A stretch of 64,000 bases of DNA, taken from an uncultured bacterium (GTDB lineage Bacteria; Acidobacteriota; Thermoanaerobaculia; Multivoradales; JAHZIX01). Shown piece by piece: positions 12,342 to 60,775 of the stretch. How positions within the stretch are numbered: position 1 is the first letter of the stretch; each line of letters opens with the position of its first letter. The stretch spans positions 5,488 to 69,487 of the forward strand of contig CBDUPA010000026.1 of the NCBI GenBank assembly GCA_965368975.1. Reading direction: 5' to 3'. Both the position numbers and the translations under genes were made by a program. The notes beneath the pieces were generated by a model that had not been told where the DNA came from, ran no database searches, and worked only from the letters and a program-made list of their open reading frames with translations.

Positions 12342-13738
12342 GGTAGGTCCTTTGCTGTCTCTGCTCCAGGGGATTCGATGTCGAGCGGCGCGTCGGCTCG
12401 CGATGGTTCGAGGGCGTCCGGGATCTCATCTTCCAAACCACGCAGGCGCGGATAGAGAAGGCCGACACCGGCGACCAGGATGACGCTGGCACCGCCGAGG
12501 ATGAACATGAAGGCGATTCCGCGGCCCGGGCCGGTGCCGATCAGTGCACCGACGCTGGTGGCCAGAGTGCCGCCGGGGGCCAGCAGGGGTTCGAAGACGT
12601 GGTCGGCCAGCGGTCCCGCCAGCACGTAGCCGAGCGGGACCGTGGCACGGGTCAGCATCTGGCGGGCGGCGAGGACCTTGCCGAGCACCCCGCTGGGCAC
12701 CTTGGTCTGCCAGATGATGTCGTTGCAGGCGAAGATGAAGGGCAGGGTGGCGAAGAAGAAGAAGGCGCAGACGCCGATCAGCAGCGACGATGGTCGCAAT
12801 CCGTGCAGCATCAGGGCGATGCCGGCCAGCGCCAGGAAGCCGAGCACGCCGTGGATGCGCCGTGCCGGTCCGCCCCAGCTGCTCATCAGCATGCCGCCCA
12901 CCAGCATGCCGACGCCACCGATCGAGGTCAGCAGGCCGAGCATGGCGGCGCTGGTGAACTCCAGGATCATCGGGGTGATCAGCGGGCCGATGATGGCCAG
13001 CATGAAGCTGAACCAGCCGATCACCGCCAGGATGCCGAGCAGCCCGGGATGGCGGAAAATGTAGGACAGGCCGAAGGTCAGCTCCTGCCGCAGGCCACCC
13101 TCACCCTCGTCACCCGCCTCGGCAAGCCGCGGCGGGCGTGGGATGCGCACCGCGAGTAGCGTTGCCAGCGCGACCAGGAAGGTGACGACGTCGATGCCGA
13201 CCACGCCGCTGAGGCCGACCTCGAGCAGCAGGTAGCCAGCCAGTGCCGGTGCCAGCACCTGGCGGATCGCCACCGCGGTCTGCGCCAAGCCGTTGGCGTG
13301 ACCCAACTGCTTGCGGGGCACCAGCAGCGGGATCGACGCCAGGTAGGCGGGCTCTTGGAAGGCGTTGCCGAGAGACGAGATCGCGACCACCAGGTAGATG
13401 TGCCACACGTCGAGCTGGCCGCTGAGGGCCAGCAGCAGGACGGCCAGGCTGCCCAGACCGGCCATCAGGTCGGCAGCGATCATCATGGTGCGGCGGTCGT
13501 GGCGGTCGACCAGCGCACCGGCCAGCGGCGCGATCAGCAGACCGGGCAGTTCCAGGAAGAGGAAGATGAGGGCAAAGCTGGTCGCCGAACCGGTCTGCTG
13601 GTAGACCCACACGCCGAGGGCAAAGGCGGTCAGGCCGGTGCCCACCTGCGATACCACCTGACCGCTCCAGATGGTGTAGAAGGGCTTCATGTTGGCACGT
13701 TGTACTGGTGCTTCTTCTTGGCTCATAGGGGGGCTCAT
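12338..13738 (-). CDS. MFS transporter (EntS/peptide-exporter-like)
   Basis: About 12 hydrophobic segments and the GALVDRHDRR loop motif typical of NRPS-associated MFS exporters. Its start makes an ATGA overlap with the NRPS-PKS stop. Confidence 0.85.
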   Translation of the reverse strand: MSPPMSQEEAPVQRANMKPFYTIWSGQVVSQVGTGLTAFALGVWVYQQTGSATSFALIFLFLELPGLLIAPLAGALVDRHDRRTMMIAADLMAGLGSLAVLLLALSGQLDVWHIYLVVAISSLGNAFQEPAYLASIPLLVPRKQLGHANGLAQTAVAIRQVLAPALAGYLLLEVGLSGVVGIDVVTFLVALATLLAVRIPRPPRLAEAGDEGEGGLRQELTFGLSYIFRHPGLLGILAVIGWFSFMLAIIGPLITPMILEFTSAAMLGLLTSIGGVGMLVGGMLMSSWGGPARRIHGVLGFLALAGIALMLHGLRPSSLLIGVCAFFFFATLPFIFACNDIIWQTKVPSGVLGKVLAARQMLTRATVPLGYVLAGPLADHVFEPLLAPGGTLATSVGALIGTGPGRGIAFMFILGGASVILVAGVGLLYPRLRGLEDEIPDALEPSRADAPLDIESPGAETAKDLP

Positions 13739-16700: not shown

Positions 16701-19700
16701 CCATGGCGTTGCAAGAACCCGGCAGCGCCAGCCCGACCAGGTCGCCGGGGGCGACACCGGTGCGTCGCAGGCGCGCGGCCAGGGCCCGTGCGTGGCGCAC
16801 GAGGTGACCGTAGCTCAACCGCCCGTCGGCCGCCTCCACGGCAATCGCATGGGGGCGCCGCGTGGCTTGACGCAGCACCAGGTCGTGCAAGCAGTCGTGC
16901 GGTGTCGCCTCGGGAACGGCGAGGGACTGCCGCCAGTCGACCGTCGTGGCGTTCCACTCGACCACCACGCGTGTGGCCTCCGCCGGGCTCATCACTGGCA
17001 GTGCCGCAACATCAATGCCATCGGCTTGCGACGCGACCGCCGCCAGCAGCGTCTGGAAGCCGTCGATCAAGCGCTCGATGGTGTCGGTTTCGAACAGGTC
17101 GGTGCTGAAGTCGATGAGGCCAGCCAGCTGGCCATTGCCCTCCTTGGTCCCTGCTTGCGGCGCCTGCTCCTCCAGAGAGAGGGTCAGGTCGAAGTGCGAA
17201 GTCTCAGAGTCGGGTTCCAGCATCTCGAAGGGGATGCCGGCGAAATCGTCGCCCACGGGCGGCGTGTTGTGGAACACCAGCATCACCTGGAACAGCGGGT
17301 TGACGCCCGCGTCACGCTGTGGCCGCAGCTCGCTGACCAGGCGCTCGAAGGGCAGTTCCTGGTTGGCGAAGCCGCCGGTCACCACTTCTTTGACCCGCGC
17401 TACCAGACGTGCGAAGTCGGAGTTCGGATCGATCACGGTGCGCAGCACCACGGTGTTGACGAAGAAGCCGATCAGTTCCTGCGTGCGCGGCTCTTCGCGG
17501 TTGGCCACCGGCGTGCCGACGCACACGTCCCACTGTCCGCTCCAACGCGCCAGCAGCAGCTGGAAGGCGGCGAGTACGACCGGGAACATCGTCGCTTTGG
17601 CTTGGCGGGCGAGCGTGCGCAGGCCGGCGAGGACGGAGCCCGGCACGCTGAAAGTGAGGCGGCGGCCTCGGAAGCTGTGCACGGACGGGCGGGCGTGGTC
17701 GAGCGGCAGTTCGAGGATCGGTGGCGCACCCGCCAATTGCCGGCGCCAGTACTCCAGCTGAGGCGCCAAGCCGTCCTGGCCTGGCGCGCTCGCCTTGCCG
17801 GCTTCATCCAAACGTCGACGTTGCCAGACGGCGTAGTCTGCGTACTGGATCGGCAGCTCGGGCAAGCGTGCCGCGGCGGTGTCGTCTGTCCCGGATTGCT
17901 GACTGTACAAGGCCGCCAGGTCGCGGAACAGGACGCGGCCGGACCAGCCGTCGAGGATCGAGTGGTGCATCGTCAGACCGAGGTAGCAGGCCTCTTGGCT
18001 CTTGCTCTTGCTCTCGTCATCATCCGCGGCCTCTTCCCGGACGTGCCACAGCCGAGCTCGCCACAGCGGTGCCCGCGCCAGGTCCATCGGCCGTGCCAGG
18101 TCGCGCAGCGTCTGCTGGCGCACGAAGGTCTCGGCGCCACGAATACGCCGCAGGTCGATCACCGGTAGCTCGACGGGGCCGGGCTCTTCGATTCGCTGTA
18201 CCGGCTTGCCGTCGTCGAGCACGAAGGCGGTGCGCAGCACTTCGTGGCGGCGCGCCAGCTCGGCCAGCGCGCGCCTCAGGGCGCCGGCGTCGAGCCGCCC
18301 GTGCAGGTGTAGCACTACCGGCAGGTTGTAGGCCGCCGAGCCGCCGTCTCCATCCCCGTCGGCACCCAATTGTGCGAGTAGCCACAAGCGTTCCTGGCTG
18401 TCCGACAGCGGTAGCGGTTGGCTGCGGGGTGCCGGCGCCAGCTCGCCAGTCATCGGCCGCCGGGCGTCGATCAGGGCTGCTTGTTCGGCGACCGTCGGTG
18501 CCTTGCCCAGGATCTCGGTCGCTCGAACCTCGACGCCGAAGCGGCGACGCAGAAGGTGCGCCAGCTGCGTGGCGAGCAGGGAGTGGCCACCGAGGTCGAG
18601 GAATTCGGCGTCGGGATCGACGGTCTCGAGGCCCAGTAGCTCGCGCCAGGCGTCGGCGACGGCTGCCGTCGTCCCCCCGAGGGGTACTGCGTCGGGCGTG
18701 CGAGCGGGCTCGGCTGGCCCAGGCCCGACATGCCCAGGCCCGACAGATCCAGGTGCGGCATCCTCCGCTGGAACCATCCCAGGAGTCGTGGCGCCGCGCC
18801 GCCCCGGCTCGATCCAGCAGCGCTGGCGTTCGAAGGGGTAGGTCGGCAGCACCACGCGGCGCCGTTCCTGGCCGGCCCAGAAGGTGTTTGGATCCACGTC
18901 GACACCAAGCAGCCACAGCCGGCCGACGGCTTCCAACACCTGCGCCAGGTCCGACGTCTCGTCGCGTGGATGCGGCAAGGTGCGGATGACGGGGTGATTC
19001 GTTCCTTGCGACTCGTTGCGGCGCACCAGGGTCGACAGCGTGTGCCCGGGGCCGAGCTCCAACAGCACGATGCCGCCCGGCTCGCTCTGGTGCAGCTCGA
19101 ACAGGCGTTGCAGGCTGTCGCCGAAGCGCACGGCGTGGCGCAGGTGACGCGTCCAGTAGTCGATCGACGCGGCCTCGGCGGGCTCGATCCAGCGGCCGGT
19201 GATGCAGGAGACGAACGGACGCTCGGGGGTCTTGGGAGCGGCGTGCTCGACCTCGGCGCGGTAGGCGTCGAGGATGGGTTCCATCAGCAAGGAGTGGGCG
19301 GCGGTGGTCAAGTGTAGGCGCCGGGTCTCGATCTCCTCCGCGGCCAACGTGGTCTCGAAAGCCTCGATGGCCGCGACCGTGCCGGCCACCACACAGTCGG
19401 ATGGGCTGTTGACGGTCGCCAGGGACAGCGTTTCAGCCATCCCGGTTTCGCGCAGCCGGGCCTCGACCTCGGCTGCCGGCCGGGTGACGGCGAGCATGGC
19501 GCCCGTCGGTGTCGCGGCCATCAGGCGACCGCGCGCGGCGACCAGTCGCAGTGCCGTGTCGCGCTCGAAGACACCGGCCAGCGTTGCGGCCACCAGCTCG
19601 CCCAGGCTGTGGCCGAGCATGGCTCGCGGCTCGATGCCCCAGCTTTGCCACAGCTGCGCCAGCGCGTACTCGACCAGGAACAGGGCCGGCTGCCCCAGGT

Positions 19701-22700
19701 CGAGTGTTGCCAGACGGCGCTGGGCGTCCTCGGCTGTGTGTTCGGAGGTATCACCGGTGGCCAGGATCAGCTCACGCAGGTCGAGGCCGAGCAGTGGCTC
19801 GAGCAGCGCGCAGCCTTCGTCCAGCTGGCGGCGGAAGACCTCTTCGTTGGCGTACAGCTGGCGCGCCATGCCGGCATGCTGGGTGCCCTGTCCTGCGAAG
19901 AGAAACACCACGGACGGTGGGCTCGGCGGTAGCTGGCCGAGCTGGCGCGCGCGCGGAGTGAGACCCCGCAGCTGCTGCACCGCCTGCGCCGGATCAGCCG
20001 CATCGACGATGGTCGTCAGGCGATGCTCGAAGTCCTTGCGACCGCGGTGCAGGGTGAAGGCGATGTCGGCGAAGTCGAGGCCTGCTGGTGATGCCGGCTG
20101 TTCCTCGAGGTGCTGGGCCAGACTGGCAGCATTGGCTTCCAAGGCTGCGGCCGTGCGGGCCGACAGGCGCAGCAGTTGCATGGGGTGACCCGGCCTGTCT
20201 GCGGCGCTCTCGGAAGCTGCCTCTTCCAGGATCACATGCGCGTTGGTGCCGCCGATGCCGAAGGCCGAGACCGCGGCGCGGCGCGGCGTCTCGCCCGCCG
20301 GCCAGGGTCGCGCCTCGGCTGGCACGTAGAAGGGCGAATCTTCGAGGTCGAGTTCCGGGTTGGGTGTCTGGAAGTGCAGGTTGGGTGGGATCTGCCGGTG
20401 CTGCAACGACAGCGCGGCCCGGATCAGGCCACCGACGCCGGCCGCGGTGTCCATGTGGCCGACCTGCGTCTTGAACGACGACAGCGCGATCGACTGCTCC
20501 TCCACGTGGGTTTGCTGTGTGTACGCGCGACGCAGCGCGTCGACCTCGATCGGGTCGCCGAGCACGGTGCCGGTGCCGTGACACTCGACGTAGCCCAGGC
20601 TGGCCGGTGCCACGCCGGCCCGCTGCAACGCCTTGACGATCACCCGCGTCTGCCCCTCGATGCTGGGCGCCGTGTAGCCAACCTTGGCGTCGCCGTCGTT
20701 GTTGATCGCCGTGCCCTTGATCACGGCCACGATCGGGTCGCCGTCGGCGCGCGCGTCGGCCAGGCGCTTGAGCACCACCATGCCGGCGCCGCTCGACTCG
20801 ACGGTGCCGCCGGCACGGGCGTCGAAGGCGCGGCAGTGACCGTCCGGCGAGGCGATGCTGTCGGCCACGTGCAGGTAGCCGACGCCGTGCGGGATCTGCA
20901 GCGTGCAACCGCCCGCCAGCGCCATGTCGCAGTCGCCGGAGAGCAGGCTCTGGCACGCCAGGTGGACCGCCACCAGTGAGGTCGAGCAGGCGGTCTGCAC
21001 CGATACCGCCGGGCCGCGCAGGCCGAGCTTGTAGGCGACGCGCGTGGCGGTGAAGTCCGGGCCGGTGGCGATCATCGATTGCACTTCGCCCTGCTGGTGC
21101 AGGATCTCTGGCCGCGTCAGCAGGTGCTTGACCAGATAGCCCGGCCCGCCTATCCCGGCGAAGACGCCGACTTCGCCGGGATAGGTGTCGCCAGCCCAGC
21201 CGGCCCGTTCGAGCGCTTCCCAGGCGCACTCGAGCAGCAGGCGCTGCTGCGGGTCGGTGAGCGCGGCTTCGCGAGCCCCGAAGTCGAAGAAGGCTGCGTC
21301 GAAATCGCGGATGTGGTCGACCTTGGTCCCGGCCGGCACGTAGTCCGGGTCGTCCACCCGCGCCGGATCTTCGCCCGCTTGCAGCAACTGCTCGCGGTCG
21401 AAGCGCTCGATCGCCTCGACGCCGTCGGTGATGCACCGCCACAGCGCGTCGATGTCCGGGGCGTGCGGGAAGCGGCCGGCCACCGCGACGATGGCGATGT
21501 CACGCCCGCTCGCGCTACCTGCTGCCGCCGTCGGGTGCCGTTCTGGTAGGAGCTGTTCTGGTGAGTGGACGGGGCGAGCGGATGCCGACTTGTCTCCCCC
21601 CGGCGCGCCGAGGAACCCCGCCAGCCGTCGTACGGTCGTGTGTTGGAGCAAGTCCAGGATGCGCACGCGCGGCCAGCGCTGCTTGAGGCGCAAGTGCAGG
21701 CGCGGCAGCAGCAGCGAATGGCCGCCGAGGTCGAAGAAGTTCTTGTCCGCCGGCACCGCGTCGAGGCCGAGTACCTGCCGCCAGAGTTCGGCGACGAACG
21801 CCTCCGCCTCGTCGGCCGGTGGCGCTCCCGCGGCCGTCTCGTGCTGCTCGTCTGGCAGCGGTCGCAGTGCCAGCGCCTTGCGGTCGATCTTGCCATTGGG
21901 GGTCAGCGGTAGTTCGTCGAGGCGGTCGAAGACCGCCGGCATCATGTAGCCGGGCAGGCGGGCGGCGGCGAAATCGCGCAGATCGGCGTCGGAGACGGTG
22001 GTCCCCGCTCCCGCGATGACATAGGCCACCAACCGCTGTCCGCGCACCAGCACTGCCGCCCCCGTCACCGATGGATGACGGCGCAGCGCGGCTTCGACTT
22101 CCCCCAGCTCGATGCGATACCCGTGCAGCTTGACTTGGTGGTCCAGTCGGCCGAGGAGCTCCAGCTCGCCATCGGCCCGCCAGCGAGCGCGGTCACCGGT
22201 GCGATAGAGCCGCTGACCGGCCTTGCCGAAGGGATCGGGCAAGTAACGCTCGGCGGTCAGGCCGGGCCGGCCGAGGTAGGCGCGTGTCACGCCCTCGCCC
22301 GCCAGCATCAGCTCGCCGAGGACGCCGATGGGCACCGCCTCGCCGCGCGCGTCGAGCACGTGGACCTGGGTGTTGTCGATTGGACCACCGATCGTCGGCT
22401 CGGCGTCACGGCCGCGCGATAGCAGCTTGCCCGATAGCAGCTTGCCCGGCACCAGCGAATACGTCGAGTAGGTGGTGTCCTCGGAAGGACCATAGAGGTT
22501 GTAGACCTTCACCGCCTTCGATGCCGCGTACACCTGGTCGACCAGCGCCCGCCGCAGGGGTTCGCCGGCCAGGTTGATCACCCGTGCGGAGTCTGGGATG
22601 CCTTCGGCGGCGGCGAGCTCGGCGATGGCCGAGGGCACGGTGTTGAGCAGCGTGACGCGCTCGCGGGCGGGGTGTTCGAGCAGATGCAGCGCGTCGCGAG

Positions 22701-25700
22701 CCAGGATCACCGTGCCGCCTTGGGTCAGCGGCAGGAACAGCTCGTAGATCGACAGGTCGAAGCACACCGAGGTCACTGCCGCCACGCCCGCCAGCTCGTC
22801 CGGCGGGAAGATACGCGCCGCCCAAGTCAGCATGGCGACGGCGTTGCGGTGGCTGATCTCGACACCTTTGGGGCGGCCGGTCGAGCCGGAGGTATAGATG
22901 AAGTAGGCGCGCTGCCGCGGGTCGACGCGGGACGCTGCCGGGGCTGCCGCTGCGTCTGCTGTCGGCGCCGCGAGGTCCAGCTCGTCGAGGAACAGCAGTT
23001 CTGGCCCCTTGGCCGTTTCGTCGGAGGGCTTGTCGACCAGCTCATCGAACAAATGGGCCAGCGCGCGGTCGGTGAGCACGCGTCGAGCACGCGTGTCCTG
23101 CACCATGAAGGCGAGGCGCTGCGGTGGGTAGGTGGGGTCGAGGGGCAGGTAGCTGCCACCCGCTTCCAGCACCGCCAGCAGGGCGACGACCAGTTCGGGC
23201 GTGCGCGGCAGGCAGACCGCCACCGCCTCCTCGGGCGCCACGCCGCGCCGACGCAGTAGCGCGGCCAGTCGGTGTACCCGCTGCCACAGCTGGGCGTAGG
23301 CCAGGGTCTCGACCGCCTCGGAGGTTCCTCCGGAGGTCCCCTCGGCGACTCCTTCGGCGATCAGCGCCGTCTGCGCTGGCGTCTGTGCCGCCTGCTGGGC
23401 CACCAGAGCGTGCAGCGTCACATCGGGCGGCAGCGGGCGCTCGGTGCGGTTGACCAGGTCGATCAGCTGGCGGTCGGCGGCCGGTACCAGCGGTAGTCGC
23501 CAAAGCGGCAGTTCGGGGTGGTCGAGCACGCCCTGGAGCAGCAGTCGATAGGCCTCGAACAGGCGTTCGATGGTGGTGGCGTCGAACAGTGCGGTGGCGT
23601 ACTCGACGGACACGCGCAATCCCTCGGCGCGGTCGAAGATGGTCACTTCGACGTCGAACTTGGCCGTGCCGCTGTGGCCGTGGAGCGGGCGCTGGTCGAG
23701 CCCGGGAAGCGACGGGGCCAGTTCCATCGCCAGCACCTGGAACAGCACCTGGAAGAACGGCGTGCGTGCGGCATCGCGCGTCGGTTCGAGCTCCTGCACC
23801 AGCCGCTCGAAGGGCAGCGCCTGGTGGATCTGCGCTCCCACCACCGTCTGGCGCGTGTTGGCCAGCAGATCGGCGAAAGTGCGGTTGCCATGCTCTGCAG
23901 CGGCCAGGTCGAGGCGCAGTACCAGGGTGTTGGCGAACAGGCCCACCAGGTTCTCGAACTCGGTGCGGTAGCGGCCGGCCGACGGCGTGCCTACAGCCAG
24001 GTCGTGGTGGCCGCTGAAGCGTGCGAAGAGGACGTAGAAGGCAGCGAGAAGTGCCGTGAACAGCGTCTCACCGTGCTGGCGGGCGAGGCCACGCAGGCCC
24101 TCGGACAGCTCGCCGGGCAGGGTCACTACATGCAGTGCGCCGTCCGCCTGCTGCACCCTCGGCCGTGGTCGGTCCGCGGGCAGGTCGGCCGGCTCCAGAC
24201 CATCGAGCTGACGGCGCCAGTAGGTCACCAGTCGCTGCTGCTCGGCTTCCTCCAGCCAGCTCGCCTGCCAGGCGGCGAAGTCGGCGTACTGCAGCTCGGG
24301 CTCGGGTAGCGGTGACGCTTGCCCCTGGTGGAAGACGTTGTAGAGCTGCGACATCTCCTTGGCGATCAGGTCCTGCGACCAGCCGTCCGTGGCGATGTGG
24401 TGGATGTTGAGGATCAAGACGTGCAGCTCGGCACCTGCCCTCAGCAGACGCGTGCGCCATACCGCGTCGTGCTCCAGGTCGAAGGGCGCGCCGGCTTCTC
24501 GCGCCACCAAGTCCCTGGACTTGCGCTGGCGGTCGGCGTCCTGGAGGCCGCTCAGGTCGACGATCTCGAGGTGCCAGGGCCGTGGCGGATCGACCAGCGC
24601 CACCGGCTCGCCGTCGCGACTGCCGTAGCGCGTGCGCAGCACGGCATGGCGGCGGGCGACATCGGCCAGGGCGCGGTCGAGGGCCTGGATGTCGAGGGCA
24701 CCGTGTAGCTCGAAGGCGGAAGGGATGTTGTAGAGCGCCGAACTCAGCTCCAGCTGGTGTAGGAACCACAGTCGCCGCTGGCCGAAGGAGAGCGGTGCTG
24801 GCCGCGTCGGGTCGAGGCGCGGAATCGGTGGCAGCGCCGCCGCCGTCGAGGTGCCGGCCGCCTGGACCTCTTGGATGCGCCGCGCCAGCGCGGCGACGGT
24901 GGGGTGCTCGAAGATCTCGTGCAGCGACAGTTCCAGGCCCAGGATGTCGCGCACGCGAGCCAGCAGCTGGGTAGCCAGCAGCGAGTGACCACCGAGGGCG
25001 AAGAAGCTGGTCTCGACGCCCACCCGCTCGGCGCCCAGCACCTCGCACCATAGCGCCGCGATTTGTCGCTCGAGATCGTTGCGCGGCTCGACCAACTCAG
25101 CCTCGCTGACGCCAGCGTGTTCGAAGTCGAAGGCCGGCAGGGCTCGCCGATCGACCTTGCCATTGGCGTTCAATGGCAGTTCATGAAGGAACTGGAAGCC
25201 GGTGGGGACCAGGTACTCCGGCATGCTCTGCCCGAGGAACGACCGCAGCTCTTCGACGCTCGGTGCCGCGACCTCGGCTCCAATCACGACGAAGGCCACC
25301 AGCCGCTTGGAGCCTCGGCCGTCGTCCTGCATCACCACCGCCCGCTCCTTGATCGCCGGGTGCTGACCCAGCTGCGCCTCGATCTCACCCAGCTCGACGC
25401 GGAAGCCGCGCACCTTCACCTGGTGGTCGATGCGGCCGATGTAGTCCAGCACCCCGCTGGGTAGCCAGCGCACCAGGTCGCCGGTGCGGTAGACGCGCGC
25501 GCCAGGCTGCTCGTGACCCACGCGTGCCGAGCAGGGATGGGGGATGAAGACGCCCGCGGTCAGCGCCGGTCGCCGGTGGTAGCCCTGCGCCAGACCGGGG
25601 CCACCGACCACCAGCTCGCCCGCTGCACCAATTGGTGCCGGCCGTTGCCAGCGGTCGAGCACCAGTACCTCGGTGTTGCCGACCGGCTCGCCGATCGGTA

Positions 25701-27486
25701 CCGACGTCGCGCCCGGCGGCACCTCCGGTACCCGGTAGCAAGTGGTGAAGGTGGTCGCTTCGGTCGGGCCGTAGCCGTTGATGTGCACCGTCGGACCTTG
25801 GGCCATCGACGCGCGCACGGCGTCCGGATCGCAGCGCTCGCCGCCGAACATGAGCGTGCCGACGTGGGCCAGCAGGTCCGGCACCTGGCGCGCATACTGG
25901 TGGAACAGCGACGCCGTCAGCCACAGCACGGTCGGTCGCAGGCGCTCGAGGGCCGTGCGCAAGCGCTCGGCGGACAGCAGCGTCTCGCGCTCGATACCCA
26001 GGAGGTGGCCGCCGTGCAGCAGTGAGCCCCAGAGTTCCAGTGTGGCGACGTCGAACGAGGTGTTGGACGCCTGTACGATGCGCTCCTCGGGGCCAAACTC
26101 GTAGTAACGGCCGCCGAACACCAGGCGCACGACGGCTCGTTGCGGAATTACCACACCCTTCGGCCGGCCGGTCGAGCCCGAGGTGTAGATCACATACGCT
26201 GGGTACTCCGGGCCGACGCGCGGTAGTGGTGGTTCTTCCTGAGAGGCTAGTTCGCCCTCAGCAACTGGCGCCGTGAACAATTCTTCGTCGACATACAGCA
26301 CGCGGCAGCCCTGCGCCGCCAGCTCGTCGAGCGGCAAGCGTGCCGCCTGCACCTTGTCGGTGATCAACACCGGCGTCGCGGTGTCTTCGGCCATCCACAC
26401 CAGTCGCTCGGCTGGATAGGCGGGGTCCAGCGGTGCGTACGCCGCGCCCGCCAAGATGATCGCCACGAAGCTGGTGATCAGCTCTGGCGAGCGTTCCAGG
26501 CAGACCGCCACCAGGTCGCCCGGTCGCACGCCGTGCGCGCGCAGATGGTGCGCCAGGCAGCGCGCTCGCTCGTCCAGTTGCCGGTAGTTCAGACACACTT
26601 CGCCGTAGCTCACCGCCGGCCGTTCCGGGTACGTCTCGACGGCGTGCTGGAACAGCTCCGTGAGACCGCGGTCGAGCGGTGCCTGCGTGCGCGCCGCACC
26701 GTTCCAGGCGTCGAGCAACTGCCACTGGCCGTCGCTCACCATCTCGAGCTCCGTCAGTCGCGACGACGGCGTCGCCGCCACGGCCGCGAGCAAGCGGGCA
26801 AAGCTCGCCAGCAGGTTCTCGATCGTCGCGGGATCGAAGAGCTCGCTCTCGTAGACGGCGCTCAGATAAGGCTCGGTGTCCGAGACCGTCACCAGCGTTA
26901 CCGCCAGATCGTGCGCAACCGGCACCGTGGTTTCACGATCGACGCCGCGGTGCTCGAACAAGACCTCGGTGAACGGATTTCTTGTCCCAGCGTGGGCCTC
27001 TGGTCGCAACGCGGAGACCAGGTCTGACCACGGAACCGCCTGCTCACGAGTCTTCCGTGCGAGGGTCCGAACGTGTGTGAGCAACTGGGCGAAGCTTGGC
27101 TGCCCGCCGACTTCGGCCGGGACCTCGACCGGGACCTCGACCGGGACCTCGACCGGGGCTGCCGTCAGCTGCACACGCACGACGGTCAGGTCGTCGTGCA
27201 TCCACCCTACCGCCAGGTCCGTATGCCCTGTCAAGCGGCTGAGCCAAGCCGAGAACGCGGCGAGGCCCGCGACTGACAGATCTGGGTCCAGGTCTCGTAG
27301 CCGCTCGATCAGCGCCGCCGACAACGCACGAACTTGCCGTCCCGGTTTGCCTAGGGACGTCTTCGTTCGCGTCCGGTCGATCGGCAACTCCAAGCGTCCC
27401 GGCTCGGCGCCCGCTAGGCGGTCACGCCAAGCTTCGATCAGTTCCGCCTCGGGTTCACTGCGGCCGCTTGGTTGACTCGGTGGCAT
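13735..27486 (-). CDS. Hybrid NRPS-PKS megasynthase: (truncated C)-A-T-C-A-T-KS-AT-T-C-A-T-R
   Basis: Core motifs in order: A (YVIYTSGSTGRPKGV), T (FFALGGHSLLA), C (HHIATDGWS), A (YFIYTSGSTGRPKGV), T (FFDLGGHSLL), KS (TACSTSLVAVH/ECHGTGT), AT (GHSLGE), T (FLDLGGHSLLA), C (HHSILDGWS), A (YVITTSGSTGRPKGV), T (FFAAGGSSLLA), R (VTGGTGFLG, YEQSK). The ATG at 27486 is preceded by AAGGAA. The ORF-track start is 27525. Confidence 0.95.
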   Translation of the reverse strand: MPPSQPSGRSEPEAELIEAWRDRLAGAEPGRLELPIDRTRTKTSLGKPGRQVRALSAALIERLRDLDPDLSVAGLAAFSAWLSRLTGHTDLAVGWMHDDLTVVRVQLTAAPVEVPVEVPVEVPAEVGGQPSFAQLLTHVRTLARKTREQAVPWSDLVSALRPEAHAGTRNPFTEVLFEHRGVDRETTVPVAHDLAVTLVTVSDTEPYLSAVYESELFDPATIENLLASFARLLAAVAATPSSRLTELEMVSDGQWQLLDAWNGAARTQAPLDRGLTELFQHAVETYPERPAVSYGEVCLNYRQLDERARCLAHHLRAHGVRPGDLVAVCLERSPELITSFVAIILAGAAYAPLDPAYPAERLVWMAEDTATPVLITDKVQAARLPLDELAAQGCRVLYVDEELFTAPVAEGELASQEEPPLPRVGPEYPAYVIYTSGSTGRPKGVVIPQRAVVRLVFGGRYYEFGPEERIVQASNTSFDVATLELWGSLLHGGHLLGIERETLLSAERLRTALERLRPTVLWLTASLFHQYARQVPDLLAHVGTLMFGGERCDPDAVRASMAQGPTVHINGYGPTEATTFTTCYRVPEVPPGATSVPIGEPVGNTEVLVLDRWQRPAPIGAAGELVVGGPGLAQGYHRRPALTAGVFIPHPCSARVGHEQPGARVYRTGDLVRWLPSGVLDYIGRIDHQVKVRGFRVELGEIEAQLGQHPAIKERAVVMQDDGRGSKRLVAFVVIGAEVAAPSVEELRSFLGQSMPEYLVPTGFQFLHELPLNANGKVDRRALPAFDFEHAGVSEAELVEPRNDLERQIAALWCEVLGAERVGVETSFFALGGHSLLATQLLARVRDILGLELSLHEIFEHPTVAALARRIQEVQAAGTSTAAALPPIPRLDPTRPAPLSFGQRRLWFLHQLELSSALYNIPSAFELHGALDIQALDRALADVARRHAVLRTRYGSRDGEPVALVDPPRPWHLEIVDLSGLQDADRQRKSRDLVAREAGAPFDLEHDAVWRTRLLRAGAELHVLILNIHHIATDGWSQDLIAKEMSQLYNVFHQGQASPLPEPELQYADFAAWQASWLEEAEQQRLVTYWRRQLDGLEPADLPADRPRPRVQQADGALHVVTLPGELSEGLRGLARQHGETLFTALLAAFYVLFARFSGHHDLAVGTPSAGRYRTEFENLVGLFANTLVLRLDLAAAEHGNRTFADLLANTRQTVVGAQIHQALPFERLVQELEPTRDAARTPFFQVLFQVLAMELAPSLPGLDQRPLHGHSGTAKFDVEVTIFDRAEGLRVSVEYATALFDATTIERLFEAYRLLLQGVLDHPELPLWRLPLVPAADRQLIDLVNRTERPLPPDVTLHALVAQQAAQTPAQTALIAEGVAEGTSGGTSEAVETLAYAQLWQRVHRLAALLRRRGVAPEEAVAVCLPRTPELVVALLAVLEAGGSYLPLDPTYPPQRLAFMVQDTRARRVLTDRALAHLFDELVDKPSDETAKGPELLFLDELDLAAPTADAAAAPAASRVDPRQRAYFIYTSGSTGRPKGVEISHRNAVAMLTWAARIFPPDELAGVAAVTSVCFDLSIYELFLPLTQGGTVILARDALHLLEHPARERVTLLNTVPSAIAELAAAEGIPDSARVINLAGEPLRRALVDQVYAASKAVKVYNLYGPSEDTTYSTYSLVPGKLLSGKLLSRGRDAEPTIGGPIDNTQVHVLDARGEAVPIGVLGELMLAGEGVTRAYLGRPGLTAERYLPDPFGKAGQRLYRTGDRARWRADGELELLGRLDHQVKLHGYRIELGEVEAALRRHPSVTGAAVLVRGQRLVAYVIAGAGTTVSDADLRDFAAARLPGYMMPAVFDRLDELPLTPNGKIDRKALALRPLPDEQHETAAGAPPADEAEAFVAELWRQVLGLDAVPADKNFFDLGGHSLLLPRLHLRLKQRWPRVRILDLLQHTTVRRLAGFLGAPGGDKSASARPVHSPEQLLPERHPTAAAGSASGRDIAIVAVAGRFPHAPDIDALWRCITDGVEAIERFDREQLLQAGEDPARVDDPDYVPAGTKVDHIRDFDAAFFDFGAREAALTDPQQRLLLECAWEALERAGWAGDTYPGEVGVFAGIGGPGYLVKHLLTRPEILHQQGEVQSMIATGPDFTATRVAYKLGLRGPAVSVQTACSTSLVAVHLACQSLLSGDCDMALAGGCTLQIPHGVGYLHVADSIASPDGHCRAFDARAGGTVESSGAGMVVLKRLADARADGDPIVAVIKGTAINNDGDAKVGYTAPSIEGQTRVIVKALQRAGVAPASLGYVECHGTGTVLGDPIEVDALRRAYTQQTHVEEQSIALSSFKTQVGHMDTAAGVGGLIRAALSLQHRQIPPNLHFQTPNPELDLEDSPFYVPAEARPWPAGETPRRAAVSAFGIGGTNAHVILEEAASESAADRPGHPMQLLRLSARTAAALEANAASLAQHLEEQPASPAGLDFADIAFTLHRGRKDFEHRLTTIVDAADPAQAVQQLRGLTPRARQLGQLPPSPPSVVFLFAGQGTQHAGMARQLYANEEVFRRQLDEGCALLEPLLGLDLRELILATGDTSEHTAEDAQRRLATLDLGQPALFLVEYALAQLWQSWGIEPRAMLGHSLGELVAATLAGVFERDTALRLVAARGRLMAATPTGAMLAVTRPAAEVEARLRETGMAETLSLATVNSPSDCVVAGTVAAIEAFETTLAAEEIETRRLHLTTAAHSLLMEPILDAYRAEVEHAAPKTPERPFVSCITGRWIEPAEAASIDYWTRHLRHAVRFGDSLQRLFELHQSEPGGIVLLELGPGHTLSTLVRRNESQGTNHPVIRTLPHPRDETSDLAQVLEAVGRLWLLGVDVDPNTFWAGQERRRVVLPTYPFERQRCWIEPGRRGATTPGMVPAEDAAPGSVGPGHVGPGPAEPARTPDAVPLGGTTAAVADAWRELLGLETVDPDAEFLDLGGHSLLATQLAHLLRRRFGVEVRATEILGKAPTVAEQAALIDARRPMTGELAPAPRSQPLPLSDSQERLWLLAQLGADGDGDGGSAAYNLPVVLHLHGRLDAGALRRALAELARRHEVLRTAFVLDDGKPVQRIEEPGPVELPVIDLRRIRGAETFVRQQTLRDLARPMDLARAPLWRARLWHVREEAADDDESKSKSQEACYLGLTMHHSILDGWSGRVLFRDLAALYSQQSGTDDTAAARLPELPIQYADYAVWQRRRLDEAGKASAPGQDGLAPQLEYWRRQLAGAPPILELPLDHARPSVHSFRGRRLTFSVPGSVLAGLRTLARQAKATMFPVVLAAFQLLLARWSGQWDVCVGTPVANREEPRTQELIGFFVNTVVLRTVIDPNSDFARLVARVKEVVTGGFANQELPFERLVSELRPQRDAGVNPLFQVMLVFHNTPPVGDDFAGIPFEMLEPDSETSHFDLTLSLEEQAPQAGTKEGNGQLAGLIDFSTDLFETDTIERLIDGFQTLLAAVASQADGIDVAALPVMSPAEATRVVVEWNATTVDWRQSLAVPEATPHDCLHDLVLRQATRRPHAIAVEAADGRLSYGHLVRHARALAARLRRTGVAPGDLVGLALPGSCNAMVAIVAIHLAGAAYLPLDPGAPAERQRQILEDNGCRVLIGTARLTGYKGRLVPPRGHSAPATPLPTSSSAGFSPDYPAYVITTSGSTGRPKGVAVSHRSAVNLAYAFVQHHGLRETHRFLAIPPLHFDASVGDLFPAWAAGACLIFHPAPGRLTGDRLDRFCTRRRVSVIDTAVALWKAWLDDWLVSQKLASQGRARNRQLVLPDLEVMMVGGEAVNTHQLATWAQLASPRARVFNHYGPTEATVCATSYPTRDGSEVTRPALPIGAPLPNVRVYVLDTHLRPQPASVAGELCLGGAGIALGYLRLPARTAEVFVPDPFARGEGSSPVGGNPGGRLYRTGDLARWLPVRSGEHATSTQGVLEFLGRRDRQVKIRGFRIELGEIEATLQRHPEVASAVVVAFGEGAAAQLVGYVVAKSTETTPPALDTLRTFLADHLPAYMVPSTIVPLEVLPLTPNGKVDLRALPAPTVGTAEPVTPRTPLEAQLLEIWRELLSAPQLGVEDDFFAAGGSSLLAMQLASRMQLELLLEIPLTKLFEATTVAAFARVVEALRAGETQTLDLRARAVLDPAIQPRESRPGQPRPEKDRPTGTGVLVTGGTGFLGAYLIDELLRARNGDIYILVRADTIEAGRQRIQRNLEAYDLWSDIESRGDAGRKDAARLVPVLGDLSQPRLGLDAAAFARLAAQLGELHHNAAAVDFVRPYSALEAINVHGTEEVLRLASLDGARPVHFVSTLGLFLQPAYEGTTVTEDDAPSPDGLDKGYEQSKWVAEQLCEQARERGLPVNILRPARVSGAASSGAANTQDLFYSWIKGCVQLGLAPDIAHAIDLMPVDYLAKAIVCLAADLATDLDSGNLGTGTLGRAYHFYNRRTLPFRELARWVNVHVQPLRLVPYGEWVTALRSAVAAQQENALASFLALFGDTLEEDRQPTFEQHHSQARLQAAGLVCPPADDTLLTTYFDYLERTGFLRRTRPETPRLKLPPLKTSVPPA
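22417..22446. repeat. In-frame 15-bp tandem duplication inside NRPS adenylation domain 2
   Basis: CGATAGCAGCTTGCC occurs twice in tandem and encodes GKLLSGKLLS. Confidence 0.9.
27121..27156. repeat. 12-bp x3 in-frame tandem repeat in the NRPS N-terminal region
   Basis: GACCTCGACCGG occurs three times and encodes the PVEVPVEVPVEV part of PVEVPVEVPVEVPAEV. Confidence 0.9.
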
Positions 27487-27816
27487 CGGGTTCCTTTTCA
27501 AGGCAACAGCACAAATCAACCGCAAGGCAGCGCTTAGGCTGCCACGGTACTCGTTGCCCTGTGACCTGGCGACTGTGTTCAGTCTTTAGTGAAGAGGAAC
27601 CCGGATGTCCTGTGATCAGAGCATGCAGACGCTCGGGAGACGACCTTCGCCGAGCCCAAGCTGAGAGGTCCAGTATAGACCAGCTTCGATTTCGAGTGGT
27701 TGGGTTAGTACTGAGGTGCTCACGGTAAAGGTCTTCGCGCGGACTCTGTCTGGTTGTCGCGTCGGTGGCCGGCGCGTGATCGCGGATCTCGCTGAAGTAG
27801 TCGGCGGTCCGAGTGA

Positions 27817-57461: not shown

Positions 57462-57547
57462 GGAGCTATTCTAGCGTGCTGGCATGGGGCTGTGCCGGCC
57501 CAGAGGCAAGGCGGGGCGGTGCTAAGCTGAGGCCGGAGGGAGTCTCG

Positions 57548-57940
57548 ATGAGCAGCGGTGCGGACAAGGAAGTACGGATCGACAAGTGGCTGCAGATCGC
57601 CCGGGTTTTCAAGTCGCGCAGTCAGGCGACTCGAGCGTGCGAGTTGGGCCGCGTCAAGGTCAACGGCTACGTTACCAAGGCGCACCGTCGCCTGCAGCTA
57701 GAGGATCGCATTGCGGTGGAGAAGGGGGAGTGGACGCAGGTCGTGGTGGTGAAGGAATTGCGTGACAAGCCGCTTCCCAAGGCCGAAGCTGCGCGTCTGT
57801 ACGAGGATGAGAGCCCACCGAAGCCGGCACCGGATCCGCTGCGCAGGCTGATGCGGATGCCCGCTGCCAAGCGCGAGCGCGGCGCTGGCCGGCCGACCAA
57901 GAAGCAGCGGCGCGAGATGGACCGTCTCCGCGGAGACTGA
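57548..57940 (+). CDS. S4-domain RNA-binding protein (Hsp15/HslR-like)
   Basis: VRIDKWLQIARVFKSRSQATRACELGRVKVNG is an S4 motif, followed by a basic tail. GGAGGG lies 7 nt upstream of the ATG at 57548. Confidence 0.8.
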   Translation: MSSGADKEVRIDKWLQIARVFKSRSQATRACELGRVKVNGYVTKAHRRLQLEDRIAVEKGEWTQVVVVKELRDKPLPKAEAARLYEDESPPKPAPDPLRRLMRMPAAKRERGAGRPTKKQRREMDRLRGD

Positions 57941-57963
57941 TTTCCGCGGAGACTGATCTCCGC
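57927..57963. repeat. 16-bp x2.3 tandem repeat spanning the S4-gene stop codon
   Basis: TCCGCGGAGACTGATT, TCCGCGGAGACTGATC, then TCCGC. Confidence 0.9.
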
Positions 57964-58053
57964 TGAAATGGAGCTGGCGACCGGTTGGGCGATGGGGCTG
58001 CCTGGTGAAACGGGGCTGTCGAGGAGATCCCGCGGACATGCTTGCGCTCTTGG

Positions 58054-58088
58054 CAAAAAAATGCGTCGGGAGCTGCTAGCTCCCGACG
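58054..58088 (-). terminator. Strong rho-independent terminator on the minus strand
   Basis: Perfect 11-bp stem (58064-58088, 3-nt loop). On the minus strand it is followed by CA and then seven T residues. Confidence 0.8.
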
Positions 58089-58277
58089 GCAGAGGACAGC
58101 CGGTTACGGCTTCTGTTTCGAGTTGTCACCGAGTCGCTGGCGCTCTAGGGCCAGCTCAGCCATGGGGGCCAGCGGGTATGGAGGCCCATTCAGTGGTGCG
58201 AGGTCCGCATCTCAGTGGTAGAGGAGGAACTGTGAGATGACCCACTGAGATTGTGCGTGCGGTGCGGTTTCCTCACG
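58054..58277 (-). ncRNA. Candidate ~220-nt small RNA (promoter-to-terminator unit, no convincing ORF)
   Basis: The unit runs from a near-consensus promoter (TTGACA-17 nt-TAGACT) to the terminator above. An internal 10-bp stem (58209-58218 with 58242-58251) presents a CCUCCUC-containing loop. Confidence 0.5.
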
Positions 58278-58283
58278 ACCCGG

Positions 58284-58312
58284 AGTCTAGGCACTAGATC
58301 TTGAGTTGTCAA
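58284..58312 (-). promoter_or_regulatory. Sigma70-type promoter (minus strand)
   Basis: The -35 TTGACA is at 58312-58307 and the -10 TAGACT at 58289-58284, with a 17-nt spacer. Confidence 0.55.
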
Positions 58313-58338
58313 GGTGATGTCCATGTTCTGTTGACCAA
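58306..58338. promoter_or_regulatory. Three phased 11-bp direct repeats (CarH-operator-like)
   Basis: The units TTGTCAAGGTG, ATGTCCATGTT and CTGTTGACCAA fit nTGTnnAnnTn at 6/6, 6/6 and 5/6 specified positions. Confidence 0.5.
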
Positions 58339-58359
58339 ATCTGGACAGGCTGGTACAGT
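58331..58359 (+). promoter_or_regulatory. Sigma70-type promoter for the carH-like gene (predicts a leaderless mRNA)
   Basis: The -35 TTGACC, a 17-nt spacer and an extended -10 TGGTACAGT. Only 6 nt separate the -10 from the ATG at 58366. Confidence 0.55.
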
Positions 58360-58365
58360 CCCGCA

Positions 58366-59376
58366 ATGTCCAGTAAGCTGATTCACATGCCACTCCCTCG
58401 CTCGCTAGAGTCCGCGGTCCAGCAAGACGACGTTGCGCGCCATCCCATTGGGATTGTTGCACGCCGTACGGCGCTTAAGCCTGACCTGATCCGGGCCTGG
58501 GAGCGACGCTACCAGGCGGTGCAGCCACGGAGGACTGCAGGTCGACATCGCTTTTACAGCGATCTGGACATCGAGCGATTGACGCTGCTGCGTTTGGCGA
58601 CCGAGAATGGTCGCAGTATTGGGCAGATCGCAAGGCTGTCGCACCAGGAACTGCTGCAACTGGTGCGCGAGGATCAGCAGGCGGTGGGCAGCGTGCCCCT
58701 GCGGGGCGAGCCGGTTCTCAGTGATGGCCTCAGGGGCGCCGAGCAGTACCGCACCGCGTGCATGTCAGCGGTGGAAGGGCTGGAGGCGCGCGAGTTGGAG
58801 TTGTTGCTGGAGCAGGCCGCGGTCGACTTGAGTCGGCCGGTCCTGATCGAGGAAATGCTGGTTCCGCTTCTGCAGCAGATCGGTGACCGCTGGCGCGAGG
58901 GAAGCCTCCGGCCGATGCACGAGCATCTGAGCACGGCGGTGGTGCGCTCGTTCATCGGCACGATCCACGCCAACTCGCTGGTCGACGCGCACGCACCGCA
59001 GCTAGTGGCGACCACGCCGTCAGGGCAACGGCACGAGTTGGGAGCCTTGATGGTCGCCGGTATTGCAGCTTCGGAAGGCTGGCGGACGACCTATCTCGGG
59101 CCGGACCTGCCAGCGGAGGAAATTGTCGCGGCTTGCCGCCTGAAGGGGGCACGGGCACTGGCGCTGAGCCTGGTCTACCCGGCGGACGATCCGCTGCTGG
59201 GCGACAATCTTCTACTTCTAAGCAGACACCTGCCGGAGACCTGTTCGATTCTGATCGGAGGGGCCGCGGCACCCGCCTACCGTGAGTACTTGGACGCAAT
59301 CGGAGCCGTGGTCGTGGGGGACTTGACGTCATTCCGCGACGAACTGGGTAAGCTACGACTCCAGTCTAAAGTCTGA
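58366..59376 (+). CDS. carH: MerR-family, B12-binding photoreceptor-type transcriptional repressor (CarH/LitR family)
   Basis: MerR HTH (IGIVARRTALKPDLIRAWERRY). Wx9EH motif (WREGSLRPMHEH). B12-binding motifs RHELG...SL...GG. Confidence 0.8.
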   Translation: MSSKLIHMPLPRSLESAVQQDDVARHPIGIVARRTALKPDLIRAWERRYQAVQPRRTAGRHRFYSDLDIERLTLLRLATENGRSIGQIARLSHQELLQLVREDQQAVGSVPLRGEPVLSDGLRGAEQYRTACMSAVEGLEARELELLLEQAAVDLSRPVLIEEMLVPLLQQIGDRWREGSLRPMHEHLSTAVVRSFIGTIHANSLVDAHAPQLVATTPSGQRHELGALMVAGIAASEGWRTTYLGPDLPAEEIVAACRLKGARALALSLVYPADDPLLGDNLLLLSRHLPETCSILIGGAAAPAYREYLDAIGAVVVGDLTSFRDELGKLRLQSKV

Positions 59377-59419: not shown

Positions 59420-59455
59420 TCAGATCGGCTGTGTCTCTCAGATCGGCTGTGTCTC
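59420..59455. repeat. 18-bp x2 tandem duplication that includes the stop and last five codons of the 59438-60775 gene
   Basis: TCAGATCGGCTGTGTCTC occurs twice in perfect tandem. Confidence 0.95.
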
Positions 59456-60775
59456 GGAGCGTTGCTGGGCGCGCTCCAGGTAGGCGGCGATCTCGCGCAA
59501 CAGGCCCAAGGTCACCAGTTGCTTCTCGGCGGCGTTGACGAACAGGATCAGGGCCGCCATGACCTCGCGTCCGAGCTGCTGGCCCTGGAAGATGGGCAGC
59601 ATTTCCTGCGCTAGCTGCTGAATGCGCACCACCTCGCCGCGCCGAGCGTAGACCATCGCCAGGTCGAGCGACACGCGGGCGGCTTCGTAGCTCATGTTCA
59701 GCTCGAGGTAGCGTTGCTGTAGCTCCAGGTACTTCTCTTCGGCCTGGTCCAGGCGATCGGCAGCGGCGTCGAGGTCAGCGCCGGCCCAACGCAGCCGCAG
59801 CAGGTTGAGGCGGTCTCCGAGGCGCTCGCACACCTGGATGGCACCGGCGAGTTCACGCTGGGCGTCGGTGTCTCGTCCTTGGGCCATGAAGCAGAGGGAG
59901 AGGTTCTGGCGGGCGCAGACCACGAGCGAGCCCTCGCGCCAGGTGTCGATCTGGTCCAGACCTTGGTAGAGCAGGTCGACGACCGTGTCGAGGTCATCTG
60001 GGTCGCCGTCCACTGCCCGCCAAGCCAGATGTCGTACGACGCCTTGCTGGATGCGCGCGCGGCCGAGCTGGTGGTTATCGGAGGCGGCATCGTAGATGTC
60101 ACTCATAGCGTCGAGCAGCAAGTCGGCTTCTGCGTAGCGTGCCAGGTCGCACAGCAGGGAGACGCGCAAGGACAGCACTTCGGCGCGCAGGTAGGGATCG
60201 AGGCGCTCCTCGGCCGGCGTCGCGGAGTCGAGCAATCTGCGCGCTTCTTCCATCGCCTGCTCGGCGCCCGGCAAGTCGGAGCCGACGCGGCGGGAGTTGG
60301 CCAGGTAGGCCCAGGCGCGTGCCAGCAACCCGGAGCGTAGCCGGCGGTCGTAGTCAGTGGCGTCGAGGCGGCGCGCCACGGTCAAGCCGAGGGTCGCCAT
60401 GTCGACAGCTTGACGGCTGTCGTCGAACCAAGACTGGCGGCACTTCTCGAGCAGCATCTCGGCCAGCAGGTAGCTGCTGAAGCGTTCGTCGGCTCGAGCT
60501 AGCTGCAGCCGTACCTCGGACGGGCAGGCGAGTAGTTCAGCGTAGAGGACCGGCGCCAGAGAGCGGTCGCGGGCGGCAAGATCCTTGCCGTTGTGCAGGC
60601 GTTCCGTGACGTGCTCGATCGCCTGCCGGTAGTCTTCGTTGTCCCAGGCCGAGGCAGTCCGGTTCGACAGCTCGACCAGGTCGTCTTCGGAGTCTGTTTC
60701 CTGCTGTACCCAGGGGAAGGCCAGAACGCGTGCTTGGCCGGAATTAGAGTCGGACATGTCGGGTCTCCGCGTCAA
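59438..60775 (-). CDS. Helical-repeat (TPR-like) protein of unknown function
   Basis: 445-aa ORF rich in Leu/Ala/Arg helix-pair-like repeats. No TM segment or signal peptide. Confidence 0.6.
   Translation of the reverse strand: MTRRPDMSDSNSGQARVLAFPWVQQETDSEDDLVELSNRTASAWDNEDYRQAIEHVTERLHNGKDLAARDRSLAPVLYAELLACPSEVRLQLARADERFSSYLLAEMLLEKCRQSWFDDSRQAVDMATLGLTVARRLDATDYDRRLRSGLLARAWAYLANSRRVGSDLPGAEQAMEEARRLLDSATPAEERLDPYLRAEVLSLRVSLLCDLARYAEADLLLDAMSDIYDAASDNHQLGRARIQQGVVRHLAWRAVDGDPDDLDTVVDLLYQGLDQIDTWREGSLVVCARQNLSLCFMAQGRDTDAQRELAGAIQVCERLGDRLNLLRLRWAGADLDAAADRLDQAEEKYLELQQRYLELNMSYEAARVSLDLAMVYARRGEVVRIQQLAQEMLPIFQGQQLGREVMAALILFVNAAEKQLVTLGLLREIAAYLERAQQRSETQPI

Follow-up and report, generated by a model that had tools for sequence, protein, structure and literature searches.

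A probable carH-linked family of small non-coding RNAs in Acidobacteriota

The 64,000-nucleotide stretch of DNA analyzed here (the window) very probably contains, at 58277-58055 on the minus strand, a stand-alone gene for a small non-coding RNA (sRNA) of about 223 nt, judging from its sequence signals. The RNA very probably belongs to a new family tied to carH, the gene of a B12-dependent photoreceptor, in Acidobacteriota (Thermoanaerobaculia, Holophagales). This makes the finding more general than an earlier note on the same DNA, which had proposed a single candidate sRNA, could see. The best reading of the unit, to which we assign a probability of about 0.5, is an sRNA that CarH represses and light induces, and that acts in trans through an anti-Shine-Dalgarno-like seed. 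Light/B12 control and anti-Shine-Dalgarno action are both well motivated and unproven. The family suggests that carH-bearing Acidobacteriota may control gene expression by light through an RNA.

The predicted gene is delimited by two strong signals (Table 1). TTGACA-17-TAGACT is the sole site in the 64-kb window (67% G+C, both strands) that matches at least 10 of the 12 sigma-70 consensus positions, and shuffles matched in composition give 0.75 such sites. Both hexamers and the distance between them are kept in more than 30 loci. The start of the RNA is predicted near 58277, as deduced from the position of the -10 hexamer. At the other end, the arms of the terminator are GC-rich and 100% complementary, and no more than four strong hairpin-plus-T-run sites turned up on the two strands of the window, this one being the best. 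The plus strand lacks a T-run after the hairpin, so termination is expected to be one-directional. The promoter proposed in the earlier note was found exactly where it had been placed; the 11-bp hairpin followed by CA and seven T residues, and the S4 gene ending on the opposite strand, were likewise borne out. Neither the promoter alone nor the terminator alone is significant; their pairing and, above all, recurrence in more than 30 loci is.

Table 1. Features of the candidate sRNA gene and its surroundings, in window coordinates
Feature	Position	Strand	Details
carH	58366-59376	plus	MerR_1, B12-binding_2 and B12-binding domains (Pfam); divergent from the sRNA
carH promoter	TTGACC 58331-58336; TACAGT 58354-58359	plus	17-nt spacer; ATG at 58366; consensus match
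Two further TnnACA repeats	TCAACA 58334-58329; TGGACA 58323-58318	minus	Exactly 22 and 11 bp upstream of the -35 hexamer
-35 hexamer TTGACA	58312-58307	minus	Doubles as the promoter-proximal TnnACA repeat; kept in all related loci
-10 hexamer TAGACT	58289-58284	minus	17-nt spacer after the -35 hexamer
5′ domain, three-tier hairpin (predicted)	58276-58199	minus	Outer helix GUGAGG/CCUCGC, middle helix CCGCA/UGCGG
Apical stem	58251-58242 / 58218-58209	minus	10 bp, 100% complementary, 23-nt loop
Loop motif UUCCUCCUCU	58229-58220	minus	In the apical loop; predicted unpaired 0.99 (window), 0.89 (L002); absent from L003
Window-specific segment	58170-58130	minus	Gap in the L002 and L003 alignment; bears part of the 19-codon frame
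Small hairpin AGCCG-UAAC-CGGCU	58111-58098	minus	Invariant in window, L002, L003 and L039
C/U-rich motif GUCCUCUGC	58097-58089	minus	Between small hairpin and terminator; invariant in the window clade
Intrinsic terminator	58088-58055	minus	Arms 58088-58078 / 58074-58064, 11 bp, 3-nt loop, CA, T7 at 58061-58055
S4-domain (Hsp15-like) gene	57476-57940	plus	Flanks the sRNA 3′ end

Evidence for a family comes from other carH loci, whose upstream regions were read on the minus strand for architecture rather than for sequence similarity. Eighty loci were gathered from GTDB species representatives with a CarH alignment, about 54 of them labelled Acidobacteriota and about 26 from other phyla; the CarH homologues of the window carry source names from Acidobacteriota, mostly Thermoanaerobaculia. 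Directly upstream of carH and divergent from it, 26 of the 80 loci have a promoter, a small non-coding body and a terminator. Each of these loci is labelled Acidobacteriota (Thermoanaerobaculia, Holophagales, Thermoanaerobaculaceae or unclassified), so that roughly half of the carH loci in the phylum have the sRNA, and the architecture was found at none of the approximately 26 loci from other phyla. Five further metagenome contigs carry the unit. L164, L165 and L168 are examples from contigs that encode closer CarH homologues. The independent non-coding unit beside carH that the earlier note had proposed thus has strong comparative support, and the region does recur next to carH homologues. 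In the layout shared by these loci, T[GA]GACA-N5-TTGACA, 17-18 nt and a -10 hexamer of the form TAnnnT lie at a distance of 14-54 nt from the carH start codon, and the short unit that follows closes with a GC-rich hairpin and U4-8. In the metagenome contigs L002 and L003 the gene order (trkA-like, S4, intergenic region, carH) is the same as in the window, both promoter hexamers are conserved, and the changes in the terminator stem are compensatory.

Members of the family range from 44 to 223 nt. The short forms (44-67 nt, n=21, of which 18 were folded; the others are L164, L165 and L168) consist of a 12-16-nt 5′ tail with CCCUC(C), UCCACCUCCCUC or similar, followed by a hairpin and a U-tail. 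The long forms (130-223 nt: window, L002, L003, L039, L009, L012, L017, L006 and L007) add variable structured 5′ domains, usually with a small hairpin, and keep the C/U-rich motif between that hairpin and the terminator. In two sub-clades, pairwise identity is 0.51-0.77 over tail and stem, compared with 0.36-0.48 in the promoter spacer and 0.27-0.29 in the 20 nt past the U-run. Tandem carH paralogs are found in some loci (L008, L011, L015, L019, L020, L037, L050, L164, L165 and L168), where the order is S4, carH1, sRNA on the opposite strand, and carH2. The sRNA in such loci always belongs to the downstream carH, and the distance of 1.3 kb between S4 and carH is explained by the second paralog in between.

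Across these sequences, a C/U-rich motif just 5′ of the terminator is the defining feature of the family. In 29 of 30 members the 16 nt that precede the terminator stem contain CCUC or CUCC, as do 17% of random 16-nt windows drawn from these loci; the stricter YCCUC/CCUCY is present in 28 of 30 members and in 7.5% of random windows. The motif stays beside the terminator in RNAs of 44 and of 223 nt, and with predicted starts 5 or 180 nt away, which argues for a role in the RNA and not in promoter DNA. A conserved seed of the kind expected of an anti-Shine-Dalgarno RNA is therefore found in 29 of the 30 members, with an accessibility that is predicted: the mean unpaired probability is 0.95 in the 18 folded short forms and only 0.2-0.7 in the long forms, including 0.54 for GUCCUCUGC in the window. 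Folding of several long forms predicts pairing of the terminator-proximal motif with G-rich segments of the 5′ part, which hints at self-masking. The long forms L006 (2216-2372), L007 (2227-2380) and L017 (879-1042), all on the minus strand, have G-rich, Shine-Dalgarno-like 5′ domains, e.g., GGUGGAGAGGUGGGAGGUG, for which pairing with the C/U-rich motif is predicted, and in L006 and L007 an internal hairpin with U6 precedes the conserved 3′ module. These domains and internal hairpins may serve self-masking or a two-stage termination.

The terminator stem itself covaries, which is the kind of support in homologous intergenic regions that the earlier note had suggested looking for. All eight basal stem pairs change on both sides among 29 aligned family members. 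In this alignment 86.6% of cells are paired, vs. 63% in shuffles and 33-53% when partner columns are slid, figures to be read with the fact that the alignment was trimmed and fitted to each sequence's own predicted hairpin and so leans towards pairing. The trimmed alignment was used because stem lengths differ, which makes RNAalifold on a plain MAFFT alignment of 26 3′ modules unsuited.

In the window, the full 224-nt RNA folds better than its shuffles (z = -3.5). The 10-bp apical stem of the earlier note is real and is predicted to fold as described there, within the 5′ domain (z = -3.5). The three-tier architecture is also found in L002 and L003 with changed sequence and is absent from short-form members. 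Only four members of the window-type long form are known, and the 5′ domain is consequently backed by little covariation. The CCUCCUC sequence of the apical loop, proposed earlier as complementary to Shine-Dalgarno sequences, is present, and its exposure is predicted. Only the window and its closest relative, L002 (CarH 82% identical), have it; L003 (62%) does not. The family-wide motif is GUCCUCUGC; the anti-Shine-Dalgarno idea of the earlier note is therefore plausible, and the element it chose is the less conserved one. The block AAGCCGUAACCGGCUGUCCUCUGC is invariant in the alignment of window, L002 and L003. The small hairpin AGCCG-UAAC-CGGCU has an analogue at the same place in L009 and L012. 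Two frames lie inside the unit, one of 19 codons starting with ATG (58163-58104) and one of 29 codons starting with GTG (58245-58156), neither of which has a ribosome-binding site. The limits given earlier hold here too: the longest ATG frame has 19 codons, and the 90-aa frame at 58190-58462 starts upstream of the promoter.

The promoter is embedded in repeats of a known kind. CarH operators are tandem 11-bp direct repeats of the form nnnnTnnACAn, one of which holds the -35 hexamer TTGACA (PMC9304148). In the window, TCAACA, TGGACA and TTGACA form three tandem 11-bp direct repeats of this type, which match the published consensus and overlap the -35 hexamer (PMC9304148), in agreement with the earlier view that the -35 lies inside CarH-operator-like repeats. 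When 25 loci are compared at the position 11 bp upstream of the -35, the hexamer there scores 3.76 out of 4 for T..ACA (background 1.05), and T[GA]GACA stands at exactly this distance in 24 of the 25. TRGACA-N5-TTGACA occurs once in the window. In every member of the family, two TnnACA repeats stand 11 bp apart and the second of them supplies the -35 hexamer; most members have two strong repeats and the window has three. The TGGACA-N5-TTGACA pair stays beside carH even in loci without the sRNA, as expected for CarH's own operator, and CarH on these candidate repeats would have to cover the -35 of the sRNA. In one sub-clade (L055, L079, L036, L027, L052, L048 and L026) the upstream TGGACAA repeat recurs in inverted form, as TTGTCCA(G/A), in the spacer between -35 and -10, so that the -35 is bracketed by an inverted pair. 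This copy may provide an extra CarH contact.

Aligned with Thermus CarH (3WHP/5C8D), the CarH protein of the window has retained both Wx9EH and the histidine that binds cobalamin (H of the xRHExG motif). The promoter of carH, on the plus strand, also has TnnAC-type repeats (TTGACC, TGGACA and GGTACA). Its -10 hexamer TACAGT ends only 6 nt before the ATG, and the carH mRNA is therefore probably leaderless and autoregulated. Similar spacings are found nearby: the trkA-like gene (minus strand) has TAGAAT 6 nt before its ATG (57461), and in most relatives TAGACT precedes the ATG of the S4/Hsp15-like gene by 6-7 nt. Leaderless mRNAs thus seem to be common in this lineage (carH, trkA-like, and S4 in most relatives). 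S4 of the window and of L002, however, is preceded by a leader of about 20 nt that carries the Shine-Dalgarno sequence GGAGGGAG. Across the S4 stop in the window (57925-57971) stand three tandem copies of a 16-nt unit, giving overlapping palindromes GTCTCCGCGGAGAC without a T-run, which may form a hairpin at the 3′ end of the S4 mRNA. On the far side of carH, a 445-aa protein encoded convergently at 59438-60775 (minus strand) is kept in L002 (91% identity) and L022 (36%); it has no Pfam match. The window also holds a single ORF of 4596 codons at 13735-27525 (minus strand).

What occupies the position of the sRNA differs among lineages. Elsewhere the promoter divergent from carH leads into genes for a sigma-70 factor, a fatty-acid desaturase, a fasciclin protein or a small membrane protein. 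These are protein-coding candidate CarH targets at the same spot, and the sRNA thus appears to take the place of a CarH target gene. In three loci (L021, L024 and L030, at about 2340-2440) a deletion has removed the RNA body and the -35 has degenerated to ATGACA, TAGACA and CCGACA, leaving TGGACA and TTGTCCAG. Four more (L016, L033, L035 and L073) have the repeat pair right at the S4 stop, with neither a -10 hexamer nor a terminator. All seven look like losses of the sRNA. The RNA is missing from about half of the carH loci in Acidobacteriota and is decaying in some, which indicates that it is dispensable.

From these features we infer that the unit is transcribed, that CarH binds at its promoter, that light induces it and that it acts in trans on mRNA targets. 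The near-consensus sigma-70 promoter would drive the sRNA, with its -35 embedded in repeats of the type bound by AdoCbl-loaded CarH. CarH tetramers would occupy the -35 in darkness and prevent synthesis of the RNA. On illumination, photolysis of AdoCbl would release CarH and allow a burst of sRNA that stops at the strong terminator. Unpaired C/U-rich motifs would then pair in trans with G-rich or Shine-Dalgarno regions of mRNAs and lower the translation or stability of these targets. Two candidate seeds are available, the terminator-adjacent motif found family-wide and a second one in the large apical loop, which is restricted to the window clade.

Several other readings of the same DNA were weighed against this light-induced, trans-acting sRNA. 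A role in cis or as an antisense transcript is unlikely. It would follow from an upstream gene (S4/Hsp15-like or carH1) that has no terminator of its own and reads through towards carH; the sRNA, or its convergent promoter, would block or process this transcription by transcriptional interference or duplex cleavage, leaving carH insulated from upstream transcription in a CarH- and light-dependent manner. In keeping with this, the sRNA is always convergent with the upstream gene, whose stop codon can be as close as about 12-20 nt to the sRNA 3′ end, the hairpin on the plus strand has no T-run behind it, and the adjacency of S4 and carH in the same orientation is widespread. However, insulation fails to explain why a short C/U-rich motif is fixed to the terminator while the remaining sequence drifts, or why structured 5′ domains were added in some lineages, and S4 and carH stay adjacent in loci without the sRNA. 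It is rather improbable that the RNA is a functionless by-product, made because the CarH operator happens to hold TTGACA or because the promoter sets carH expression, with a terminator that shields S4. The TGGACA-N5-TTGACA pair persists where the RNA does not, the RNA has been lost repeatedly, and the short forms are barely more than a terminator with a 12-16-nt leader, all of which a by-product would account for. It would not account for the conservation of a good -10 at the correct spacing, for the enrichment of CCUC/CUCC in the leader (29 of 30 members against a 17% background), for the long forms, in which this motif tracks the terminator and not the promoter, or for an RNA body whose conservation exceeds that of the promoter spacer and of the downstream flank.

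A translated product and a cis-acting leader fare worse. Both frames described above exist, and a small protein made from either is nonetheless rejected as very improbable: neither has a ribosome-binding site, the 19-codon frame sits in a segment deleted from L002 and L003, and the 44-67-nt short forms are too small for an ORF. In addition, the same DNA gives tblastn matches to L002 and L003 in several frames, as expected when nucleotides and not a protein are conserved. No conserved ORF was found within the unit by the alignment of window, L002 and L003 or by tblastn, contrary to the conserved small ORF that the earlier note had named as a possible explanation. A riboswitch or leader, for instance a cobalamin-sensing one that attenuates a downstream gene, would suit the B12-related neighborhood and a structured RNA ending in a terminator. 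It is hardly credible, and membership of the cobalamin riboswitches is rejected, since there is no same-strand gene downstream (the next gene, S4, is on the opposite strand) and no Rfam family is matched at gathering score by the window and 20 related loci. A more sweeping version of the trans-acting reading is a long shot. Here, an abundant CCUCC-bearing RNA would act as a light-gated mimic of the 16S anti-Shine-Dalgarno and titrate many Shine-Dalgarno sequences at once. Translation would shift to leaderless mRNAs (carH, trkA-like, and S4/Hsp15-like in most relatives), and the G-rich 5′ domains of the long forms would mask the seed until the RNA is processed.

Searches beyond the carH loci agree with a new family. 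The Rfam scan envisaged in the earlier note matched no known family, and even at an E-value of 10 over 57900-58420 it gave four chance-level matches only, none of them a cobalamin or other riboswitch; the weak matches near the S4 stop are due to the tandem palindromes there. With the window-clade alignment, nhmmer found only L002-L005 among 85 loci. A 22-mer of the window 3′ block had zero matches in genome and metagenome collections. A relaxed pattern of this block gave 64 genome matches, of which only L088 is real (on the same contig as L039), and 7 metagenome matches, all coding-sequence coincidences. When all GTDB representatives were searched with a pattern made of RNA features only (tail motif, stem and U-run), all four Acidobacteriota matches were known carH-adjacent copies; besides three unrelated chance matches, no unlinked copies appeared within the narrow reach of the pattern. 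The sequence GGGACAGCCGTAACCGGCTGTCCTCTGTTTTT, present in MAGs of Eremiobacterota/Vulcanimicrobiota (L091, L098, L106, L107, L116, L120, L134 and L143), is an ordinary terminator hairpin with 21 nt identical to the small hairpin and C/U-rich motif of the window. It was judged coincidental, as its context differs and has no carH. The literature search found no paper linking CarH or LitR to an sRNA or describing a carH-linked RNA family.

Transcripts and targets were also sought. None of the public RNA runs contained the window. Metatranscriptome contigs on L052 and L079 have thin coverage of carH and zero over the 57-67-nt sRNA, in libraries unsuited to such sizes. Genes with GGAG/GAGGAG-type ribosome-binding sites are present in the window (e.g., starts at 8921, 11501 and 53400, and S4 with the leader given above). 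A duplex-energy target scan inside the window returned the self-antisense match and GC-rich noise only. The ribosome-binding site of S4 was rejected as a conserved target because S4 is leaderless in most relatives. Several neighboring genes are apparently leaderless as well and thus offer no Shine-Dalgarno sequence to target.

Acidobacteriota are an abundant, little-studied phylum, and many of the CarH-bearing genomes are from non-phototrophic sediment and soil organisms. To our knowledge, all known cases of CarH/LitR photoreceptors control protein-coding genes. An sRNA as a conserved, linked output of CarH, if true, would add a post-transcriptional arm to B12-dependent light sensing, and the family would rank among the first sRNA families defined in Acidobacteriota. 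The minimal form of 45-65 nt (seed plus terminator), together with a compact CarH-controlled promoter, would be attractive for RNA-level optogenetic control. Should the RNA mimic the 16S anti-Shine-Dalgarno, it would be a global RNA-based translational switch run by a B12 photoreceptor.

The candidate RNA resembles several known systems. The CcsR1-4 or 'Cuckoo' RNAs of Alphaproteobacteria carry a C/U-rich anti-Shine-Dalgarno sequence, CCUCCUCCC, in hairpin loops, and in Rhodobacter they are part of the photo-oxidative (singlet-oxygen) stress response (PMC8034643). Both are small RNAs that display a C/U-rich sequence of the anti-Shine-Dalgarno type. However, each CcsR RNA has two loops with CCUCCUCCC and is processed from the 3′ UTR of a DUF1127 gene, whereas the window RNA has one loop with UUCCUCCUCU. 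The regulator is RpoHI/HII in one case and the candidate CarH in the other, the phylum differs, and the motif kept throughout the carH-linked family lies in the linker or 5′ tail by the terminator, unlike the CcsR loops. Membership of the CcsR/Cuckoo family is rejected: there is no Rfam match even at an E-value of 10, and the UUCCUCCUCU loop is absent from most family members. Another example is RsaE/RoxS of Firmicutes, in which repeated unpaired C-rich motifs pair with G-rich/Shine-Dalgarno regions of many mRNAs and a repressor responsive to redox state or a small molecule governs the promoter (PMC6158497). The likeness lies in a short RNA with an unpaired C-rich motif and a repressor-controlled promoter, CarH control being the proposed counterpart here. 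The motif is CCCC/UCCC in RsaE/RoxS and CCUC/CUCC here, the phylum and the presumed signal (light via B12) differ, and membership is rejected with no Rfam match and no sequence relationship.

The closest parallel on the DNA side is found in the CarH/LitR promoters of Thermus thermophilus, Bacillus megaterium and Myxococcales. These share with the present loci a MerR plus AdoCbl-binding regulator with the Wx9EH and histidine motifs, 11-bp nnnnTnnACAn repeats of which one holds the -35, and a regulated promoter divergent from or beside carH. Most members of the carH-linked family have two strong repeats instead of three or four, and control by CarH is predicted here. The established targets of CarH/LitR are protein-coding (carotenoid genes, sigma factors and others), whereas the divergent partner of carH here is predicted to be a small non-coding RNA.
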